64,000 bases of DNA from Bacteroidales bacterium (lineage in GTDB: Bacteria; Bacteroidota; Bacteroidia; Bacteroidales; GCA-2748055), in the NCBI GenBank assembly GCA_021738565.1, contig JAIPBT010000017.1, positions 15,950-79,949 of the forward strand, in the 5' to 3' direction. Made by a program: the position numbers and the translations under genes. Below are positions 53,116-64,000 of this stretch, in pieces; positions within the stretch are counted from its first letter, which is position 1, and each line of letters starts with the position of its first letter. The notes under the pieces are model-generated. The model made no database searches and had not been told where the DNA came from. It saw nothing but the letters and a program-made list of their open reading frames with translations.

Positions 53116-54093
53116 ATGGAAAAGTCTCAGTTCATAAAGCTCTGTAACTCCTGGGCAGGAGAAGGAAAAACTTTTCTCTTTGTAATCGATTATGAACTGA
53201 ATGATTTTTACATATCCCTGACAGGCGATATTGATGAACGCTATGTTATTTATGCAATACCCGGGTATCAAAATGCCGTGAAAGCAGATTCTGAGAGGGA
53301 AAGAAAAGATTTCACATTTGAGATGCATCCGGTAAATTACGAAAGGTACAGGGAAGCCTTTGAGCTTGTAAAAAGAAATATATTTCACGGAAATTCCTTC
53401 CTGCTCAACCTTACATTTCCCACAGGAATCACAACGGATCTTACGCTCCGGGAGATATTTGACCGCAGTACGGCGAAATACAGACTCTGTTTTATGGACC
53501 GGTTTGTAGTATTCTCCCCTGAAACATTTGTAAGAATAAGTGATGATGCGATTTCCTCCTATCCAATGAAGGGAACCATTGATGCGGCTTTACCGGATGC
53601 CGAAAGGATCCTTTTGAACAACCAAAAAGAGAGATGGGAACACAATACCATCGTGGACCTGATCAGGAACGATCTTTCCATGGTATCCAAAAACGTGTCG
53701 TTAAAAAAATTCCGGTATATTGACCGTATTTCCACCAACAGGAACCAATTGCTCCAGGTAAGTTCAGAGATCAGGGGTGAACTTGAACCGGGCTGGAAAC
53801 AACGCCTCGGGGATATCCTGCTGAAGATGCTTCCTGCAGGATCCATTTCCGGGGCCCCGAAAAAGAAGACTTTAGAGATAATTGCAGAGGCAGAAGGTGC
53901 CCCCAGGGGGTATTTTACAGGAATTTTTGGCATCTTTGACAGGAACAGGATGGACAGTGCAGTGATGATCCGCTACATTGAAAAAACAGATCGCGGCCTT
54001 CAGTTTCGGAGTGGGGGAGGAATAACGGGTCACAGCGATCCGCAATTGGAATACAAGGAAATGCTCGATAAAGTATATGTTCCCATTATTTGA
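53116..54093 (+). CDS. pabB: Aminodeoxychorismate synthase component I, short form
   Basis: SPETF, PMKGTI, EHNTIVDLIRNDL, PAGSISGAPK and SGGGIT motifs. Confidence 0.9.
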   Translation: MEKSQFIKLCNSWAGEGKTFLFVIDYELNDFYISLTGDIDERYVIYAIPGYQNAVKADSERERKDFTFEMHPVNYERYREAFELVKRNIFHGNSFLLNLTFPTGITTDLTLREIFDRSTAKYRLCFMDRFVVFSPETFVRISDDAISSYPMKGTIDAALPDAERILLNNQKERWEHNTIVDLIRNDLSMVSKNVSLKKFRYIDRISTNRNQLLQVSSEIRGELEPGWKQRLGDILLKMLPAGSISGAPKKKTLEIIAEAEGAPRGYFTGIFGIFDRNRMDSAVMIRYIEKTDRGLQFRSGGGITGHSDPQLEYKEMLDKVYVPII

Positions 54094-54676
54094 AACCATA
54101 AGGATAAGAGAGGGTGTTCCGCAGCATCTTGAGTGGCACCAAAAGCGGCTTGACCGTTCATTTCATCTCTTCTTTAAAATGAAGAGGGCCCCGGTGCTTG
54201 CAGAAGTGATTCGCGTTCCGGAAGAATACAGGCGGGGAACTGTCAAATGCAGGTTTTTTTATAACCGTGGGGCATATGAATCTGATTTCTCTCAGTACAC
54301 TCCACTCTCAGTCAATTTGCTTAAGGCAGTAAAATGTGATTATATCGATTATTCAATGAAATTTACCGATAGGTTTATACTGGAACAACTATTGGAAAAA
54401 CGGGAGGACTGTGATGACATACTTATAATAAAGCAAAGCGAAATTACAGACACGTCCTATTCCAACATTGCATTTTATGATGGCAGGGAATGGCTTACAC
54501 CTGCAAACCCGCTTCTGGAAGGAACGTGCAGGAGCAGGCTGCTGTATCAAAATAAAATAAGGGAAAAAGTTATCACTTTGAAGGACTTGCAGGGATTCAA
54601 TTCATTCAGGCTGATCAATGCCATGCTGGATTTTGATCAACAGGATCCCAGGCCCGTATCGAATATTATTCATTAA
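54077..54676 (+). CDS. pabC: Class IV aminotransferase-like aminodeoxychorismate lyase
   Basis: LFETI, HQKRL, TDTSYSN and LLEGTCR motifs; overlaps pabB. Confidence 0.8.
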   Translation: MFPLFETIRIREGVPQHLEWHQKRLDRSFHLFFKMKRAPVLAEVIRVPEEYRRGTVKCRFFYNRGAYESDFSQYTPLSVNLLKAVKCDYIDYSMKFTDRFILEQLLEKREDCDDILIIKQSEITDTSYSNIAFYDGREWLTPANPLLEGTCRSRLLYQNKIREKVITLKDLQGFNSFRLINAMLDFDQQDPRPVSNIIH

Positions 54677-54688
54677 AAACATACCACA

Positions 54689-55675
54689 ATGAAGAATTTT
54701 ATATTTCTGCTGGCTTTTGCCTCTGTTTTTTGCAGCTGCAGCCGGCTCGCAAATGAATCTGAAAAACGGATACCTGTGATCCTTGACACGGATGCAAACA
54801 ATGAACTGGATGACCAGCATGCAATCGCCTATATGCTGACAAACCAGGATGTTTTTGACATTGTTGGTATAACGGTCAATTCTACAAAAAACGGAGGACT
54901 GATCGATAATCATTATACAGAGGCGGTCAGGATTCTGACACTGTTCAACGAACAGGAAAATATCATTGTGAAGCGGGGAGCAGATGCTGCCTTCGACAGG
55001 ATCAGGGGCAGAATGGATTCGGGAGATTATGACGGGAAAGATGCCGTTGAATTCATTATTGAGAAAGCCAGGGATTTTAAAGACGGAAAACTCGTTTTGT
55101 CGCCCATTGGAAAGCTTACAAATATCGCTCTCGCCATCCAAAAGGCGCCTGACATCATGGACCGTGTGACGATCATCTGGCTGGGATCGAATTATCCGGA
55201 TCCCGGAGAATACAACCTGGTAAATGATACTGCTGCATTAAATTACATTCTGAACCAGGATGTTCATTTTGAGATGGTCACTGTAAGTTATGACCGTGAG
55301 ACAGGTACTACCGCTATCCGTGTTTCATTGCCTGAAATTGACTCTGTGATGCCTGGTAAAGGGCCTGTTATTGAGGGATTTATCACCGGTCGCCATGGCG
55401 GTACTTTCAATAATTTTGGAGATTATTCAGTAAACCTGTTTCATCATATTGACCTGTATGGAGACCCCCCTTCAAGGTCATTATTTGACGTAGGGGCGGT
55501 TGCAGTTTTGAAAAATCCGGGATGGGCAGAATCAAGAAAGATTCCTGCTCCTTACTATGATTCTGCAGGATGGGTCGATCAGCCGGACAATTACCGGGAG
55601 ATCATACTCTGGGAAAATTTTAACAGGGACAGCATTGTCAATGACCTGTATCGTTCTCTTCTGCAGACCGAATAA
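54689..55675 (+). CDS. Nucleoside hydrolase (IUNH family), predicted lipoprotein
   Basis: Signal peptide with VFCSC; ILDTDANNELDD, GKLTNIALA, EYN and LFD motifs. Confidence 0.85.
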   Translation: MKNFIFLLAFASVFCSCSRLANESEKRIPVILDTDANNELDDQHAIAYMLTNQDVFDIVGITVNSTKNGGLIDNHYTEAVRILTLFNEQENIIVKRGADAAFDRIRGRMDSGDYDGKDAVEFIIEKARDFKDGKLVLSPIGKLTNIALAIQKAPDIMDRVTIIWLGSNYPDPGEYNLVNDTAALNYILNQDVHFEMVTVSYDRETGTTAIRVSLPEIDSVMPGKGPVIEGFITGRHGGTFNNFGDYSVNLFHHIDLYGDPPSRSLFDVGAVAVLKNPGWAESRKIPAPYYDSAGWVDQPDNYREIILWENFNRDSIVNDLYRSLLQTE

Positions 55676-56678
55676 TATCATACACACCATTTACCCAGTT
55701 GTCGCTGGCATTCAGGCTTTGAGCCATGACGAAGTTTTTGCCTCCTGAGGCGATGAAAAGATCATGGTATTCCATCTCTATTTCTATGGTTGTTTCCAGA
55801 CAGTCTGCAACAAATGAGGCAGGTACCACAAGTATATTTTTGACCCCTGCTCTGGCGAGTTCAACAAGTCTTCTGTCAGTGAAGGGCTTCAGCCAGTTTT
55901 TTGACAGCCTCGACTGAAAGGAGGTTGAGTAATTGTTGACTGCAAGTTCCAATTTTCTGGCCATTATCCGGGTCGTTTCATAGCAGGATGCGCGATAGCA
56001 TTCTTTGCCGTGGTCGGGCATTATATCCGGACAGCTACAGGTGTGGACCGGTATCCCGGGGTGGCATTTTTGAACCTGTCGCAGGGGAAGTCCGTGGTAG
56101 GAGAACAAAACATGATCGAATGTCTTCAGATCGTAACGGACCAAATTCTGATGCCATGATTCGATAAATGCGAGGTGATCATAGAACTGATCGATAAACC
56201 TGACCGGACCTTTGTAACCAAGATCTTTTGTTTTTTCTGCAACCAGTTTTTTTACCGAACCCGTGGTGGAATCAGCAAACTGTGGGTATAACGGTAAAAT
56301 ACTTAGAGGACCAGGTTCGTTGCGCATGTATTCGTCAAGGAACTTTTCAAGCGAAGGTTCCCCGTATCTCATTAAGCCATGGATCTCCACATGACCGCCT
56401 GTTTTCTTCTCCAGTTTTTCAGCAAGTTGTTTCAAATGAAAAAGTAAAGGTGAACCTTCGGGTTTCCATAGCAAATGGTATTTTTTTGCAGATTGCGGAG
56501 CCCTGAAGGGTACGATGATGAAATTTACGAGTGCCATGCGGAGCAATGGCCGAATGTCGATCACAAGGGGATCATTCAGAAATTCCCGCAGGTATTTTCT
56601 GACCTCTTTTTTTGCCGGGGAAGCAGGGGTTCCGACATTTACAAGTATCCAGGTTTCCTTCTTATCGGTTTTTTTCAT
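55638..56678 (-). CDS. hemH: Ferrochelatase (protoporphyrin type) with Cys-rich insertion
   Basis: LVNVGTP, YLREFLND, LPLYPQF, FSYHGLP, FQSRL..WLKP and FVADCLET motifs. Confidence 0.95.
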   Translation of the reverse strand: MKKTDKKETWILVNVGTPASPAKKEVRKYLREFLNDPLVIDIRPLLRMALVNFIIVPFRAPQSAKKYHLLWKPEGSPLLFHLKQLAEKLEKKTGGHVEIHGLMRYGEPSLEKFLDEYMRNEPGPLSILPLYPQFADSTTGSVKKLVAEKTKDLGYKGPVRFIDQFYDHLAFIESWHQNLVRYDLKTFDHVLFSYHGLPLRQVQKCHPGIPVHTCSCPDIMPDHGKECYRASCYETTRIMARKLELAVNNYSTSFQSRLSKNWLKPFTDRRLVELARAGVKNILVVPASFVADCLETTIEIEMEYHDLFIASGGKNFVMAQSLNASDNWVNGVYDIIRSAEENDTGH

Positions 56679-58041
56679 TCAATATTTGTTGTGCAATCTC
56701 ATAACCCTGTTTTACCCGGTCAGCCATTCCAATGCCATCCCTGATGTTTCCTCCTAAGAAAAGCCCGGGATGCTCAGATTCAATTTTACTGATGGCTGAT
56801 AACCTTTCCCCGGAGGTTATGTCATACTGCGGAATGGCATGTTTGTATCGAAATATGTTCAATATATCCGGATTGCTGTTTTTTTGTCCAAGCATCTCAC
56901 TGATCTCATTTAAAACTGTTTTTTGAATTTCATCATCTTCCTTTTCAAACAATTCGGGGTGTTTTATCCCACCAAGGAATACTGATAAAACGGCACCTCC
57001 TTCCGGCGCCCTGTTATTGAATATCGACGAAGTGAATAACACGCCCAGTACCTTTCTTTTTTCTTTTGAAGGAACCAAACCTCCGAATGCATCAAGAGGG
57101 ATGCCGTTCCATTTCCTATAGCCTGCGACTACCTGTATCACTTTTGCATAGGGAAGTGTTTCCACCGGTTTCAGTTCATCTTCCTCTATGAATTTCAATA
57201 TACCTTTTAACTCTTTTGCACCCGTGGCAGTGACCAGGTATTTTGAATGCAGGCTGTATTCCCGGTTGTGGGCAGAAAAAGAAGTCACATAGTTTGTATC
57301 AGCATGATCAATTTTAATTTCAGAAGCATTCAGATAGATGTTTTCAGATCCCGTGACACCTGCCATGGCATCGGTAAGTTTCTGTAACCCGCCTTTTACG
57401 GAGAAAACCTCCCTGGTTGCTCTTTTTGTAAGTTCATCCTTTGGCTCTTTTCGTTTTTTTATGGATCCGCCTATAAAGCTTCCGTAATTTTGTTCCAACC
57501 GGTACAATTTCGGCAGCGCGTAGCGCGTAATCAACTGGTCCGGATATCCGGCATAGATCCCTGAAATAAAGGGATCAACTGCATAATCAAGGTAACTTTT
57601 TCCCATCCTCCTTTTTACAAGTCCTGCCACAGTTTCATCGGGATTCGTGCCCCTTTTCCTGAAGGGTTCTGCAAGGATCCGAAATTTGTCTTTGGGTGTA
57701 AACAAAGGGGTGCTTACAGCTGAAATCAATCCCGAAGGCAGGGCATGCCATTTACCACTCTTCCAAATCCATCGCTGCTTCCCTTTTTGATTGGCAAATT
57801 CAGGTATGGCAAGTCCGTCCAGGTCATCAAAAAGTCTTACAAGCTCAAATGTGGAGTATACCCCCGTATTGGGACCGGCCTCATAGATAAAACCATCTTT
57901 CCGTATGGTTTGAATAACACCGCCGGTTCTATCATTTTTCTCAAGTACGGCAATTTTTTTCCCGGCTTTCTTCAGGTAGAATGCTGCTGTTAGACCCGTT
58001 AAGCCGCTGCCAATTATAGTAATGTCAATATTGGTATTCAT
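56662..58041 (-). CDS. hemY: FAD-dependent protoporphyrinogen oxidase, HemY type
   Basis: IIGSGLTGL, GGVIQT, EAGPNT, SGIYAG, FGGLVP and AIPQY motifs. Confidence 0.92.
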   Translation of the reverse strand: MNTNIDITIIGSGLTGLTAAFYLKKAGKKIAVLEKNDRTGGVIQTIRKDGFIYEAGPNTGVYSTFELVRLFDDLDGLAIPEFANQKGKQRWIWKSGKWHALPSGLISAVSTPLFTPKDKFRILAEPFRKRGTNPDETVAGLVKRRMGKSYLDYAVDPFISGIYAGYPDQLITRYALPKLYRLEQNYGSFIGGSIKKRKEPKDELTKRATREVFSVKGGLQKLTDAMAGVTGSENIYLNASEIKIDHADTNYVTSFSAHNREYSLHSKYLVTATGAKELKGILKFIEEDELKPVETLPYAKVIQVVAGYRKWNGIPLDAFGGLVPSKEKRKVLGVLFTSSIFNNRAPEGGAVLSVFLGGIKHPELFEKEDDEIQKTVLNEISEMLGQKNSNPDILNIFRYKHAIPQYDITSGERLSAISKIESEHPGLFLGGNIRDGIGMADRVKQGYEIAQQILNEKNR

Positions 58042-58044
58042 TTT

Positions 58045-59430
58045 TCAAAGCGCTTTGGAATATTTGTTAACCTGTTCCTTGTACTCCGGGTCAAGAGATG
58101 CTGCAATATTTCTTATGAACATGGATCCCGTTTCTGTTATCAGAATTGATTCATCGTCATATTCAATGAGTCCATCCTGTTCAAACCCGGACAACAAATC
58201 CTGATCATAACGGATGACGTTTTTGAGCTTTTCCATGGCAATGTTCAAATTTTTTGTCATTGACGACCATTGTATTTTTTTATTGCACATGAGATGGGTG
58301 ATCACTTCTCGGGTTATGATCTGATCGTCAGTGACTTCAAGTCTCTTTTCAACCGGACTTCTGTTTCCAATTATTAAATTAATATATTTTTCAACCGATT
58401 TTGTATTCTGCAAATAGACCTTTTCAAGCTGGCTGATCGCTGAAACACCGAATGCATAAACCTGGCCCGTGTTCTGCCTGGTGCAATAACCCTGGAAATT
58501 TCTGTGCAGTTGATTGTTCTTCAATGCATTGTACAATTCATCATCTTTGCTGACGTAATGGTCAAGTCCGATGGGCTGGTAACCTTTTGAAGTCAGCACA
58601 TTGTATCCGGCAAGGAACATCTTCGTTTTCTCTTCGGCCCCTGGCAATCCCCTTTTTTCAAGAATTTGCTGGTGTTTTTTAAGCCACGGGACATGTGCAT
58701 AAGAGAAGGTTACCATCCTGTCGGGGTTCAAAGCTGCGGCCTGTTCCATGGTTTCAGTAAAACCGGCAACATCCTGTCCCGGAAGTCCATAAATAAAATC
58801 CAGGTTGATTGCAGCTTTACTGTTTTTATTCCGTACATAAGAAATAAGTTCATTCAGAGGCAGGGCGCTTGGTTCCCTGTTCACTCCGGCAAGCACATCG
58901 GTATTTAGATCCTGGATTCCAAAACTGAACCTGTTGAAGCCATGGGTTATTAAATGATCGATATAATCTTTGTCCAGGTATGCCGGATTGGTCTCTATCG
59001 CAATTTCTGCATCTAAGGCGAAATTAAATTTCTTTTTAAAAAACTCTACGATACCGGTGATCTTTTCGGAAGGGATGGAATTTGGAGTGCCACCTCCGAA
59101 GTGGACCTGAGTTACCAGTCGCTTCTTATCAATATGGTCGGACACCATTTCTATTTCGCACATCAGCGCACTGATGTATGCTTCAACTTCATTATTGCTT
59201 CTCAGGGTACAGGCATTGCATCCGCAGTAAAAACAAATTTTCCTGCAAAAGGGAATATGAACATACAATGCAATGTGACGCGGGTCCCAATTGTTTGACA
59301 TATCCACAAACATTGTATGATCCTTGTTCCCTGCCTGATCAATAAAATGGTTGGCGGGTGGATAACTGGTGTAACGCGGTACAGGTATGTTGTACTTTTC
59401 AAGTAGTATTACCGGTATATTCATATTCAT
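58045..59430 (-). CDS. hemN: Oxygen-independent coproporphyrinogen III dehydrogenase
   Basis: PRYTSYP, HIPFCRKICFYCGC, GGGTP and RNFQGY; these mark true HemN, not HemW. Confidence 0.95.
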   Translation of the reverse strand: MNMNIPVILLEKYNIPVPRYTSYPPANHFIDQAGNKDHTMFVDMSNNWDPRHIALYVHIPFCRKICFYCGCNACTLRSNNEVEAYISALMCEIEMVSDHIDKKRLVTQVHFGGGTPNSIPSEKITGIVEFFKKKFNFALDAEIAIETNPAYLDKDYIDHLITHGFNRFSFGIQDLNTDVLAGVNREPSALPLNELISYVRNKNSKAAINLDFIYGLPGQDVAGFTETMEQAAALNPDRMVTFSYAHVPWLKKHQQILEKRGLPGAEEKTKMFLAGYNVLTSKGYQPIGLDHYVSKDDELYNALKNNQLHRNFQGYCTRQNTGQVYAFGVSAISQLEKVYLQNTKSVEKYINLIIGNRSPVEKRLEVTDDQIITREVITHLMCNKKIQWSSMTKNLNIAMEKLKNVIRYDQDLLSGFEQDGLIEYDDESILITETGSMFIRNIAASLDPEYKEQVNKYSKAL

Positions 59431-60626
59431 TTCTTTTTTGGCATGGCATACAAAATAACAAACATAGTAACCAGTCCCAGCAAAGCTTCCAGTCCGAACA
59501 ATCCTCTGTAGCCCAGGGCATCAGCAATTTTTCCACTGGAAACAGCAATTGCAAGACTGCTGAGGTGTGTGATCACAATCTGTATTGTAAAATCTGTTCC
59601 TGCAGCACCCTGGCGTACCACGTCCATGGATGTTGTGTAAATAATTACAGACGAGGATCCATAAGTGGCCCAAACGAAACATATTCCAACATATATCAAT
59701 GTGAGTGCAGGAGATTGTATGCCAGACATCCACCAGAAATAAATTGCTGTTGAAATTCCCAGGGACGTCAGAAGGATCATTGCCTTGTTTCTGCCTGTCT
59801 GCCTGATTAGCAGACCGGCCAGGATGGCACTTATTGTGGCAACCGAGGTGCCAATGATGCCTGACATGAATCCTATTTGTTTGATATTGTATCCAAGGTC
59901 AACAAGATACGGTTTCAACATGGTGAGAACTCCTATGAAACCGGAGTAATAAAAGACCAGTATAAGGACGCGTTTGGGTATCCCGGGCATATTGAAGAAC
60001 CTTCCGATTTCACGAACTGATACCCGGTACCCCTCTTTCTTTTCAATGGTTCGATCTGTTTTATAGAACTGAAGGGGTATGATAGCAAACACAACAAACG
60101 CAGCCAGCATGAAGAGAAATACAGACCATCCGAAAAAACTGTATGCAATCAATAAAACACCGGTACCGATCAGGGCACCAACAAAACTTCCGGCCGTTTG
60201 CATACTGTTTCCAACCCCCCTTTCATTCTTCCTGAGGATCATGATAGCAAAAGCATCTGTCGCAATGTCCTGCGTTGCTGAGGCCGTAAAGGCCACAATC
60301 ATAAGAGCTACAATGAACTTGAAATCAGTCTGAAGGTTTAAAAATGCAATGCTGCAGATCACCACTGCATAAAACATTTCAGAAAGGACGATCCATCTTT
60401 TCAGGTCCTTTGAATTCCTTGATGAATTATCCACAAGGGGCGCCCAAAGGAATTTTATAATCCATGGCAGCTTCACCAGTTGTAACAGTCCGATAGATTC
60501 CAAAGAGTAATTTTCCTGGCGCATGATCACTGGCACCACCGTTGAAAAGAAGCTCATCGGAACAGACTGGGCGATATAGAGGCTAAAAAGTGTTGGAAAC
60601 TTGGTCCAGTTTTTTGATGCGGTCAT
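59427..60626 (-). CDS. MFS permease, AmpG/RhtX/FptX family
   Basis: SLYIAQSVP, LPWIIKFLWAPLVD, ASATQDIATDA and AGTDFTIQ motifs; about 12 TM segments. Confidence 0.88.
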   Translation of the reverse strand: MTASKNWTKFPTLFSLYIAQSVPMSFFSTVVPVIMRQENYSLESIGLLQLVKLPWIIKFLWAPLVDNSSRNSKDLKRWIVLSEMFYAVVICSIAFLNLQTDFKFIVALMIVAFTASATQDIATDAFAIMILRKNERGVGNSMQTAGSFVGALIGTGVLLIAYSFFGWSVFLFMLAAFVVFAIIPLQFYKTDRTIEKKEGYRVSVREIGRFFNMPGIPKRVLILVFYYSGFIGVLTMLKPYLVDLGYNIKQIGFMSGIIGTSVATISAILAGLLIRQTGRNKAMILLTSLGISTAIYFWWMSGIQSPALTLIYVGICFVWATYGSSSVIIYTTSMDVVRQGAAGTDFTIQIVITHLSSLAIAVSSGKIADALGYRGLFGLEALLGLVTMFVILYAMPKKK

Positions 60627-62734
60627 CAGAATTCATATCTAAGATTAAGCCCAAAGCACAGGGGTTTTCCGGTTTGAACATATTGATTTCCAAGTGCCTG
60701 AAAATAAAAGGCATCATACTCTGTTCCAAGCAGGTTCTTTCCCCAGAATTCAAGACCCATATTGTTTTTGTGAAAAGAGATCTTGGCATCCAGGAGTCCA
60801 TAAAAACCGGTTTTAAATGAATTCTCTTCATTCCAGTAGATATCTCCCAGACCACGGTACATTGCATTGAATCCAATTTTGTCCAGGAAATTGATCCCAT
60901 TCATTCTGAAATACCTTTTAACGATCACATTCACTGTGTGTTTTGGAATGTATGGAATGTAATTGCCCGTGTGGTCTGTTTCATTATCCACTTTGTGTTC
61001 TGTGAAAACTGCATGTGTAAATCCGTAAGACAGGGCAGGGATGAATCCTTTTATCGCCGCTGTTTTTATGGAAATTTCACCTCCTTTGCTTACAGATTTG
61101 CCGGCATTTTTCAGCAGGGAGCCGGGTGCAGGTGTATTGTCCTTATAAAATGCAGGCTGGTATATCTGCTGGTTTTTCCAGTCAATATAGAAAAGCGAAA
61201 TGTCTGTATAAAGGAAACTGTTGAAAAGGACGGACTTAAATCCTGCTTCATAGCTCCAGCTGAATTCAGGATCAAAGAAAAGGTCCTCATCCTTGTAGAA
61301 TGTTGAGTTGAATCCGCCGGTTTTATAACCTTTTGCAACTACCGCATAAATGCTGCTCCTGTTCAATTTGTAGTTTGCTGCTATTTTGGGAAGGATCTCC
61401 ATATAGGTAAGATCCGGATAGGTTGTATCAGCCATATTGACCATGTTGCCTGACCGTAAGATGTCGTAGGTGTAGTCAAGAATGTCCTGCTCAAAATCGA
61501 ATCTTATCCCTGCCGTTAGTGATAGGTTTTCAACCAGGAAATCATCTAATGTCGATTGGTGAAATACTGCAGCACCGGAAATTGTCTTGTCATATTTCTT
61601 AAATACAGTCACATCCCTCTGGTATATATCGACATCCACATGTTTATCGAATCTCTGCATGAATCCATAGGCACCGAAAAGCCAGTTGTACCTCTTATGG
61701 CTGGGGGAGCGGATGATTAACTCCTGGGAAATCATATGTTGTCGCTGTTCCTGGACGACAAAGTAGGCAGAATCCGGTGTGAAGTCCTGGTCAATGTTTT
61801 GTTGATCATCAAGGTATTGATAGGCAGTGGTGGCAACAAGCTCAACATTATCCCCGGAAAAATTGACAACCAATGCATCAGAGAACAGGGACCTGTTATA
61901 GGAACTGGGCTGGTTGTAATTGATGTCATTCGGGATCATAAGCGAATCATTGAGAATGGCATAGGGATAGCCACCTTCGCGGCTCTCTTCAAATGATACA
62001 ATATGCTCCACACGAAGCCGGTCAGTTATTTTCCAGGTCAATTTATTCCTGAGACCGAAAGAATGGGCCTTGTCTACCTGGTCGTTGAGGAAACTGTTGG
62101 TGTAAAAGCCATCCCTGTAACTGTAATTCATTGATATAGAATAACCAAAATTTTCTCCGGCCTTATTGTAGTGTCCCAGGTTGGCTGCAATATTGCCGTA
62201 ATTACCTGCTGAAAGAATCATTCTTGTACCCTGGTAATGCAGGGGAGACCTGGTGATGACATTGATTATTCCACCCATTGCATTCCTCCCATACAGTGTG
62301 CCCTGGGGGCCTTTAAGGATCTCAATTCTTTCTACATCAAAAAAATCGAAATCATAGGCGGCTTTTTCAAAATAAGGAACATGATCAACATACAATCCAA
62401 CGGAAGGACTGTTGATTCTTGAACCAATACCGCGGATGTATACAGGTGATGTTAGTTTTGAGCCGTAATCCGGCATAAAGAAACCGGGAGCAATGGCGGT
62501 GAGGTCGTTTAAGGACTGTACTTCATTTTCACTGATCGTTTTGGAAGATACCATATTGACAGTTGCAGGCATCTTTTTCAGGGTTAGGTTGTTTTTTGAA
62601 GAGCTGATTTGAATTTCTTCCAGGTGAAGTTCAGGAACTTCAGTACTGTCGGTAAGTATTATTACCTCCTGTGCATAATTGTTCTGAATGACCATCTGCA
62701 TTAGCAGGATCATGAAAATATATTTGATTTTCAT
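60626..62734 (-). CDS. TonB-dependent receptor (siderophore/porphyrin class, not SusC)
   Basis: Signal peptide, TonB-box-like LEEIQIS, plug YIRGIG and VERIEILKGPQGTLYGRNAMGGIIN, GYKTGGFN, terminal Phe. Confidence 0.93.
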   Translation of the reverse strand: MKIKYIFMILLMQMVIQNNYAQEVIILTDSTEVPELHLEEIQISSSKNNLTLKKMPATVNMVSSKTISENEVQSLNDLTAIAPGFFMPDYGSKLTSPVYIRGIGSRINSPSVGLYVDHVPYFEKAAYDFDFFDVERIEILKGPQGTLYGRNAMGGIINVITRSPLHYQGTRMILSAGNYGNIAANLGHYNKAGENFGYSISMNYSYRDGFYTNSFLNDQVDKAHSFGLRNKLTWKITDRLRVEHIVSFEESREGGYPYAILNDSLMIPNDINYNQPSSYNRSLFSDALVVNFSGDNVELVATTAYQYLDDQQNIDQDFTPDSAYFVVQEQRQHMISQELIIRSPSHKRYNWLFGAYGFMQRFDKHVDVDIYQRDVTVFKKYDKTISGAAVFHQSTLDDFLVENLSLTAGIRFDFEQDILDYTYDILRSGNMVNMADTTYPDLTYMEILPKIAANYKLNRSSIYAVVAKGYKTGGFNSTFYKDEDLFFDPEFSWSYEAGFKSVLFNSFLYTDISLFYIDWKNQQIYQPAFYKDNTPAPGSLLKNAGKSVSKGGEISIKTAAIKGFIPALSYGFTHAVFTEHKVDNETDHTGNYIPYIPKHTVNVIVKRYFRMNGINFLDKIGFNAMYRGLGDIYWNEENSFKTGFYGLLDAKISFHKNNMGLEFWGKNLLGTEYDAFYFQALGNQYVQTGKPLCFGLNLRYEF

Positions 62735-62834
62735 TGTATTGGAGTTTTAAAATGAATGAATTTTTCATGATATAAATGCCCATTCAGGTCATTTGTGTCA
62801 TGAATTCATAATGTTGAATGTTATACCCGGAGTT

Positions 62835-63176
62835 TCAGGCGGAGGGTGGAGGGCGGGAATAAAGGCAGTTCAGAAAAGGTGCCCGCGGAATCAGACATTC
62901 TATTATAGGTACTTTAAAACGCGAAAGGAGAGATTGTACACGGAACTCCCGGTTTGCTGCTGGTTCAGCGCTGTAGTTGAAATAATGAAAAGTGTTGTGC
63001 TTCTGAATTTTTTCATCAGAAGCATCGGTGAGCTTAATATTTTTAGCAATTAGGCGGTCATTGACATCATCGTCTGCACCAGCCTTCATAATGGTATGAA
63101 AGCCAATGTAGGCCCCATAGAACATTGCTATGAGTATATAGGGCAGGTGTGTTGAAAATAGACCGACTGTGAACAT
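62835..63176 (-). CDS. Hypothetical leader protein with N-terminal TM and C-terminal RPPP motif
   Basis: 113 aa, hydrophobic residues 1-26, ends LYSRPPPSA*; stop lies 100 nt upstream of the receptor start. Confidence 0.75.
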   Translation of the reverse strand: MFTVGLFSTHLPYILIAMFYGAYIGFHTIMKAGADDDVNDRLIAKNIKLTDASDEKIQKHNTFHYFNYSAEPAANREFRVQSLLSRFKVPIIECLIPRAPFLNCLYSRPPPSA

Positions 63177-63372
63177 TGCTTCCTGTTTTCAAATGCAAAG
63201 AAAACATATTTTCTTTCAATAAAAAAGTTGATGTACAGTCAGTTTCTTTAATTTAAAAAGATTCTACCTAAAAAGATATATTTTAAATCAGATTGCTTTA
63301 TTTAAAATAAATTATTTAACTTGACCGGAGAATGATGGATATCAGGGAATGGTCCCTGAAAAGAATTGAAAC

Positions 63373-63771
63373 ATGGAAACATTACATATTGAAGGAACTT
63401 ACAGAACTCCCACCATATCATTGAACCCGGATGATGGTATCCTTAAGATCATGGGCAGGTCAAATCCTGAAAATGCAAGGGAATTCTATACCCCGGTTCT
63501 TAACTGGCTGGATGAATACATTACCCTGCCGGCCGAAAGGACAGACCTGCGTGTGAACCTGGAACATTTTAATACCAGCAGTTCAAAATTTCTTATGGAG
63601 ATTTTTCGAAGAATCCGTTACCTGGCTGATAAAGACAAGGCTTTTAATGTGAAGTGGCTGTATGAGGAAGATGATCTTGAAATGCTTGATACAGCTGAAG
63701 CATATGAGATGATGACGGGCCTCAGATTTGAAAAGATAAGCTATCCGGAAGGTGAAACACCGGATATTTGA
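63373..63771 (+). CDS. SiaC / DUF1987 family regulatory phosphoprotein
   Basis: TPTI, GRSNPENAREFY, FNTSSSK and WLYEEDD motifs. Confidence 0.88.
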   Translation: METLHIEGTYRTPTISLNPDDGILKIMGRSNPENAREFYTPVLNWLDEYITLPAERTDLRVNLEHFNTSSSKFLMEIFRRIRYLADKDKAFNVKWLYEEDDLEMLDTAEAYEMMTGLRFEKISYPEGETPDI

Positions 63772-63851
63772 TGTGCACCATTGAAATTCGCCCTTTGCCC
63801 GTTTACTCCTACCCACAGGTTTCAAACAATTGCTACTTTTGTATTCATAAC

Positions 63852-64000
63852 TAGTGTCAGAAAGAAAACTCATATTATTTAGCTGTGCTTGATAAGAAAG
63901 CGACAAGAGCAAGGCCTGCGATGACTGAAGAACAGGAGTTTACTGATCGTAAATGACTGTTTTGAAGTCGAGCATAACGCAGCTATTGGCGTTTTCTTGC
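63852..64000. mobile_element. ERIC-like miniature element, copy 2 (cut by the window end)
   Basis: Same 60-nt left arm and AGCTATTGnCGTTTTCTTG right arm as 52998-53103; core CAGGAGTTTAC-TGATC-GTAAATGACTG. Confidence 0.75.

Follow-up and report, generated by a model that had tools for sequence, protein, structure and literature searches.

Leader peptides that sense a ligand by arresting the ribosome have been proven for copper (CruR and CutF) and for protein-export activity; none was found for heme in the literature searched, a coverage that stopped short of subscription papers and preprint supplements. CruR of Bordetella pertussis (Bp2923, DUF2946/PF11162; PMC9426467, PMC12992588) is encoded by an upstream ORF whose product has an export or membrane segment at its N-terminus and, at conserved spacing, a proline arrest motif placed a few residues ahead of the stop codon; the ORF has a C-rich 3' end with a Rho site, and a TonB receptor lies downstream. 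CruR stalls in vitro (PMC12992588), and shortage of the ligand turns its operon on. CutF of Rhodobacter capsulatus is another DUF2946 member with copper as ligand, in which the ligand induces the stall (bioRxiv 10.1101/2025.02.05.636593). A GTDB survey of 2025 (PMC12992588) described RAPP- and RGPP-ending upstream ORFs as enriched before TonB receptors across Gram-negative bacteria and pointed out that it is still open where the releasing signal comes from. Its extraction was confined to RAPP and RGPP; neither RPPP nor heme comes up in its main text, and the supplementary files other than file 10 gave no match to RPPP, heme, HmuY or hemA. In the same work, ApdP carrying RPPP kept its arrest in B. 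subtilis (2.4 units versus 1.9 for the wild type) and, partly, in E. coli; overall, ApdA and ApdP tolerated RPPP partly to almost fully. RPPP has also been described as the strongest XPPP staller without EF-P (PMC4176338), and a stall at LPPP in E. coli may depend on EF-P being absent (PMC10987492).

The leader family described here, identified in a 64,000-nucleotide stretch of DNA from a Bacteroidales bacterium (the window, meaning the whole stretch analysed), is best read as working like CruR and the RAPP class, and not as a member of DUF2946 or of the Sec-monitoring peptides. It shares with CruR the architecture of the ORF, the conserved spacing, the TonB receptor downstream, a C-rich 3' end that resembles the CruR Rho site and, as far as can be inferred, the polarity, which would be opposite to that of CutF. 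In contrast to CruR, its tail is mostly RPPP, its operons are concerned with heme and not copper, its hosts are Bacteroidales and not Proteobacteria, and it has no conserved CxxC; the CxxC found about 45 residues ahead of the motif in CruR and CutF is absent from the window ORF, and a CxxC anywhere occurs in 5 of 70 members. With a limit of E 0.1, no match to PF11162 turned up among 57 members, and the window ORF gave none either. With SecM, ApdA, ApdP, ApcA and the RQH family (PMC10987492, PMC12992588) the leaders have in common the R-x-P-P tail and, by prediction in many members though not at the window locus, a leader end that may pair with the next start region. Unlike these peptides, they show no sequence homology to them, precede heme genes and not secA, secDF or yidC, and have no charged signal-peptide n-region (Lys or Arg ahead of Pro12 in 0/70). 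The likeness to the upstream ORFs of the GTDB survey lies in small ORFs before TonB receptors and in the RAPP or RGPP tail of 11 of the 70 members.

The leader ORF and the operon behind it

In the 64-kb window, the leader ORF (62835-63176, minus strand) starts at an ATG and encodes 113 aa, with MFTVGLFSTHLPYILIAMFYG at its N-terminal end and RAPFLNCLYSRPPPSA directly ahead of the stop codon. The ATG of the TonB receptor lies at 62734, leaving a gap of 100 nt, as the first-pass annotation of this DNA had stated; the start of its span at 62735 takes in this gap. AlphaFold predicts helices at residues 3-8 and 11-44, kinked at Pro12 and followed by coil, with pLDDT of about 95 over residues 11-30. 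The best 19-residue stretch has a hydropathy of 1.57 (family median 1.88). Two features of RAPP-class arrest peptides are found in this small leader protein: a putative N-terminal membrane or localisation segment, and a C-terminal motif of the R-(A/G)-P-P-like kind, present as the variant RPPP and not as canonical RAPP. Searches against Pfam and NCBIfam gave no family above cut-off, and membership of DUF2946 or any other family of these catalogues was rejected for want of matches. In the ESM Atlas the leader adjoins unnamed Bacteroidota clusters (score 0.97), and the nearest named entry, SecM_small (0.93), is a lead only. A divergent SiaC-family gene (63373-63771, plus strand) has the 196-nt region upstream of the leader in common with it.

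Table 1. Coordinates of the leader, its parts and flanks, and the genes that follow it in the window
Feature	Position	Strand	Basis
Promoter box, Bacteroidota -7-like, one mismatch to TAnnTTTG, 20 nt ahead of leader ATG	63196..63203	-	box scan
Leader ORF, 113 aa, Bacteroidales family without catalogue entry	62835..63176	-	no Pfam/NCBIfam match above cut-off
N-terminal module (residues 1-31), a short and a hydrophobic helix with a kink at Pro12; putative membrane anchor and sensor	63084..63176	-	column conservation, AlphaFold
His10 codon, not conserved	63147..63149	-	His 16/70, Tyr 11/70, other 43/70
Linker, sequence variable, length conserved, predicted unstructured beyond residue 44	62856..63083	-	spacing, AlphaFold
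RPPP codons 108-111, putative arrest motif, two residues ahead of stop	62844..62855	-	R-[PAG]-P-P in 60/70
C-rich stretch at leader 3' end, 33 C/16 G; candidate Rho loading site	62815..62914	-	base composition vs genome ORF ends
Intergenic region, 100 nt, predicted internal hairpin (about 62752-62812), no TAnnTTTG box	62735..62834	-	folding, box scan
TonB-dependent receptor, 702 aa; closest solved relative FyuA pesticin receptor (E 4.5e-68)	60626..62734	-
MFS permease, RhtX/FptX- and AmpG-like, scores below cut-offs, best with RhtX/FptX	59427..60626	-
HemN	58045..59430	-	TIGR00538 451 bits, cut-off 325
Protoporphyrinogen oxidase, HemG/HemY type	56662..58041	-	TIGR00562 269 bits, cut-off 98
Ferrochelatase HemH	55638..56678	-	TIGR00109 203 bits, cut-off 125; PF00762

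Downstream of the leader the genes for the receptor, the MFS permease, hemN, hemG and hemH follow in this order, separated by a few bases or overlapping, and the stretch 55638-62734 forms a candidate porphyrin salvage module. The genes hemA, hemB, hemC and hmuY were not found in the host genome (98.5% complete), and therefore the operon is most likely the heme route of the cell, finishing an imported late porphyrin, a substrate suggested by gene order only. Heme auxotrophy occurs in Bacteroidota (PMC13096392). The host genome also carries rho, efp (coding for EF-P) and cytochrome bd. DUF4491, considered as an obligatory partner of the leader, was not found in it. Elsewhere, DUF4491 genes adjoin the leader in several families (L018, 718-1050; L020, 388-714; and others), and at L203 (764-1364) two DUF4491 copies lie directly ahead of a receptor-hemN-hemG operon without leader.

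Conservation of the leader family

A single-sequence protein search with the leader returned one relative. Of the 25 best orthologous receptor loci from 61 genomes, 21 (the window's own counted) have the same leader ahead of the receptor, one has a different leader and three have none. Forty further regions yielded 23 full members, two cut by contig ends, seven His-rich leaders from other families and eight unrelated sequences. With a few near-duplicates and one false match dropped, the set comprised 70 members, a lower bound for a family of at least this size, and its counts are not independent, the loci being related by descent and the numbers inflated by related genomes. Outside the Bacteroidales no member was found among 401 genomes of the phylum (weaker profile) or 361 of the class; 20 weak matches were inspected and rejected.

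Across the 70 members, conservation is confined to the hydrophobic N-terminal segment and the proline tail, as the proposal of the first-pass annotation would require. The N-terminal register MFxxGxFSxxxPY, followed by a helix, is carried by Gly5 (63 of 70 members), Phe7 (53), Pro12 (64), Tyr13 (54) and Tyr20 (46). The tail reads RPPP in 49 members, RGPP in 6, RAPP in 5, RPPT and NPPP in 3 each, KAPP in 2, and KPPP and LPPP in one each; R-[PAG]-P-P is present in 60/70 and R-x-P-P missing from 10/70, and the stop codon follows 1-4 residues past the tail in 60/70. The earlier assignment of this tail to a known arrest type is supported, as RPPP interchanges here with the proven arrest motifs RAPP and RGPP. 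The distance from Pro12 to the Arg of the tail averages 98.2 residues (sd 4.3, range 86-109, n = 70), and the linker past the helix is net acidic in 53/70. The family tails make use of every one of the six Arg and four Pro codons, and among 11 genus members pN/pS is 0.23 in N-terminus and tail versus 0.79-0.94 in the linker, whose segments were compared ungapped so that its values may be inflated; the tail motif is thus conserved at the peptide level.

In the host genome, R[PAG]P[PT] falls within the last 21 residues of 1 of 3174 ORFs of at least 150 aa and 4 of 2857 ORFs of 90-140 aa, and its presence in the leader is more than chance. Many members had been chosen with the tail in view, and therefore a control profile was built from N-terminal residues alone (31 residues of 21 position-defined leaders) and run against 24,064 frames with a threshold of 15 bits. 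It revealed 31 new ORFs at or above this threshold, all of 100-135 aa, of which 28 end in R[PAG]P[PT] and three in NPPP or KPPP, in a control that was not fully blind, as the searched loci came from receptor or leader matches. A variant leader with HISC replacing Pro12-Tyr13 stands ahead of a stand-alone receptor in one genus (L026/L215, L131, L135/L220).

Genes downstream of the leaders

The proposed link of the leader to heme genes extends to the family: hemN, hemG or hemH lies downstream of 32 of the 70 members, seven lead hemA-hemC-...-hemB-hemL-hemE operons (GlutR confirmed in 5/5 tested) and six lead hmuY-receptor loci (HmuY confirmed in 6/6). A receptor and MFS gene follow 11 members whose flank is too short to show more, and a salvage-type receptor without a hem gene in view follows seven, two of them at short flanks. 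Other receptors follow four members; the three tested resemble hmuY-adjacent receptors (best scores 278-316 bits) and not the salvage receptor (47-55 bits). The contig end cuts off the context of the remaining three. The expectation that members always stand ahead of a TonB receptor had to be given up, with seven leading hemA operons and one directly preceding an MFS gene.

Counted over 85 receptor-homologue loci, the leader is present at 22 of the 47 with hemN or hemG versus 4 of the 38 without; L160 and L178, weak or distant leader cases, fall below the threshold of this count. Neither this family nor the second leader family described below was found at 19 of the 47 salvage operons. Longer receptor paralogues (L159, L167, L172) have other genes upstream in place of the leader, which from their likeness we take to be of hemerythrin type and/or LuxR-type regulators.

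Promoter, RNA pairing and Rho

A strict TAnnTTTG box, which we assume to be the Bacteroidota -7 consensus, lies within 60 nt upstream of the leader in 25 of 68 loci and upstream of the downstream gene in none of the 68. At the window locus a promoter-like box precedes the leader and the gap (62735-62834) has none, as the earlier proposal of a leader controlling the receptor required; a separate receptor promoter in the 100-nt gap was rejected on the absence of this box.

In 14 of 66 loci the predicted pairing of the last leader codons with the start region that follows them outdoes their pairing with 95% of the start regions from other loci, versus 0-2 of 66 in four shifted controls. When a stall footprint is modelled, opening the start site costs at least 2 kcal/mol less in 22 of 56 loci, versus 2 of 56 with a shifted footprint. 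These footprint and pairing signals in the relatives suggest that stalling would mean ON. At the window locus itself no helix masking the start codon was found (pairing rank 0.62; the footprint changes opening from 5.3 to 4.5 kcal/mol). RNAalifold over nine genus loci, on a poor alignment, gave no consensus structure, and the search for structured RNA or a riboswitch in 54000-64000 gave one chance Rfam match only. No intrinsic terminator was found in the gap, and one weak stem lies inside the ORF (62880-62897; one found, shuffles 0.3±0.6). The end of the window leader ranks at the 99.85th percentile for C-richness among 2048 ORF ends of the host genome and holds 24 C versus 15 G once the RPPP codons are removed; with tail codons excluded, C exceeds G at the leader end in 58 of the 70 members. 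This composition points to Rho control as the more likely readout at the window locus, in place of start-codon unmasking.

Heme status as the probable signal

The leader is very probably an arrest-type element acting in cis. Its anatomy, the selection on both ends, the fixed spacing and the head position in three types of heme operon are directly supported. We favour, with moderate confidence, the reading of a RAPP-class arrest leader that responds to heme status and in which the stall is the ON state, because RPPP-ending peptides of membrane type precede heme synthesis and uptake genes across the Bacteroidales. When heme is scarce, the ribosome would pause at RPPP and the heme-finishing genes would be kept on. 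As in ApdA, ApdP and CruR, the ribosome would stall with the third motif codon in the P site and the fourth in the A site, by which time the N-terminal module, about 98 residues away, would presumably have left the ribosome and entered the membrane. The pull that frees the stall would come from heme, which would bind the Met1...Pro12-Tyr13 module or act via a heme-loaded partner. The ON state would be read out through unmasking of the next start codon in many relatives and, more likely at the window locus, through shielding of the C-rich Rho site. EF-P, present in the host genome, may relieve plain RPPP pausing.

The common thread of three otherwise unrelated kinds of operon, for porphyrin salvage, for de novo synthesis led by hemA and for uptake with hmuY, would be heme shortage, which we infer as the trigger because it is common to synthesis, uptake and salvage; iron shortage would fit uptake and not synthesis. 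No conserved His, Cys or metal-binding motif was found in the 70 members (CxxC in 5, CP in 7) and Tyr13 is replaced in 16/70, therefore no invariant heme ligand is evident. Judged by column conservation, Met1 and Tyr13 would be the best-conserved ligand candidates.

The lack of an invariant ligand residue also favours an arrest leader that senses heme indirectly, in which the nascent chain would be inserted or translocated more slowly (Sec, YidC, proton-motive force) once respiration that depends on heme fails, comparable to SecM, MifM and VemP. The net acidic linker of 53/70 members and the cytochrome bd of the host agree with this explanation, as does the description of known RAPP peptides as monitoring substrates (PMC10987492). 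A generic insertion monitor, however, would not need the strict Met1-Phe2-Gly5-Phe7-Pro12-Tyr13 register, and in none of the 67 members whose downstream gene could be seen was this gene secA, secDF or yidC, which makes indirect sensing unlikely.

A small membrane protein acting after release, or a constitutive, signal-free pause that serves coupling or mRNA stabilisation, appears rather improbable. A partner could bind to the conserved N-terminal helix, the host genome codes for EF-P and no switch helix is predicted at the window locus, all of which would suit such a role; it is opposed by the first or near-first place of the leader in unrelated operons, by the stall-type tail 1-4 residues ahead of the stop in 60/70, by a linker that keeps its length and not its sequence, and by the covariation of the leader end with downstream start regions.

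That the arrest leader responds to iron or some other metal, with a siderophore being imported by the receptor and the MFS permease, is in our judgement quite improbable. The closest solved relative of the receptor is FyuA, the permease scores best with RhtX/FptX, and CruR and CutF sense a metal, yet seven members lead de novo hemA operons and no metal-binding motif is conserved; moreover, a lack of iron should reduce the synthesis of porphyrin and raise uptake, whereas a lack of heme calls for synthesis as well as uptake. The ligation of heme or metal by His10 in the membrane segment, as the first-pass annotation proposed, is very improbable and was rejected: His (16/70) and Tyr (11/70), the latter also a possible heme ligand, are the commonest and second commonest residues of this column, but 43/70 members have neither and all 10 other genus members have Tyr.

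Other leaders at heme and metal loci

Six salvage operons (L204, L206, L207, L212, L214, L163) carry a second, non-homologous leader with an RGPP or RAPP tail, in which a His closes the hydrophobic segment (NFHQH-like). Its profile matched 31 of 351 Bacteroidales genomes. All tails at the 30 loci inspected (L312-L341) are RGPP or RAPP, and 20 of these loci precede a secreted, T9SS-tailed protein of about 415 aa, which matches HmuY in 9 of 11 tested cases (6 above cut-off). Homology of the two families was rejected, as they have nothing in common past the tail. Two distinct N-termini with one tail class in one slot lead us to argue that the tail is the functional core of both families.

His-rich leaders with RGPP, RAPP or RPPP ends were also observed, mostly before heavy-metal efflux-like or TonB genes (L271, L273, L275-L277, L279, L286, L301). 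Contig C71 of genome G000 holds a 139-aa Cys/His-rich ORF (89894-90313, plus strand) with RSPP near its end, 232 nt before the gene of a 1283-aa membrane protein that is presumably a CusA-type efflux pump; this ORF is another candidate metal-sensing arrest leader.

Implications for heme homeostasis in Bacteroidales

We tentatively propose, as a possibility that falls short of even chances, that nascent peptides which sense heme govern its homeostasis in the Bacteroidales, in hemophore uptake and porphyrin salvage as well as in synthesis. Heme would bind co-translationally to a membrane module of the form Met1...Pro-Tyr, which has neither His nor Cys, and the RPPP stall would thereby be freed, and an unrelated His-bearing module of NFHQH type with an RGPP or RAPP tail would have evolved independently to do the same job.

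The family extends the catalogue of arrest motifs to RPPP, left unextracted by the RAPP survey (PMC12992588), and, for the question of the releasing signal, supplies a definite ligand candidate along with numerous natural variants. Shared regulation marks the FyuA-like receptor and its MFS partner as the probable porphyrin importer of heme-auxotrophic Bacteroidales.
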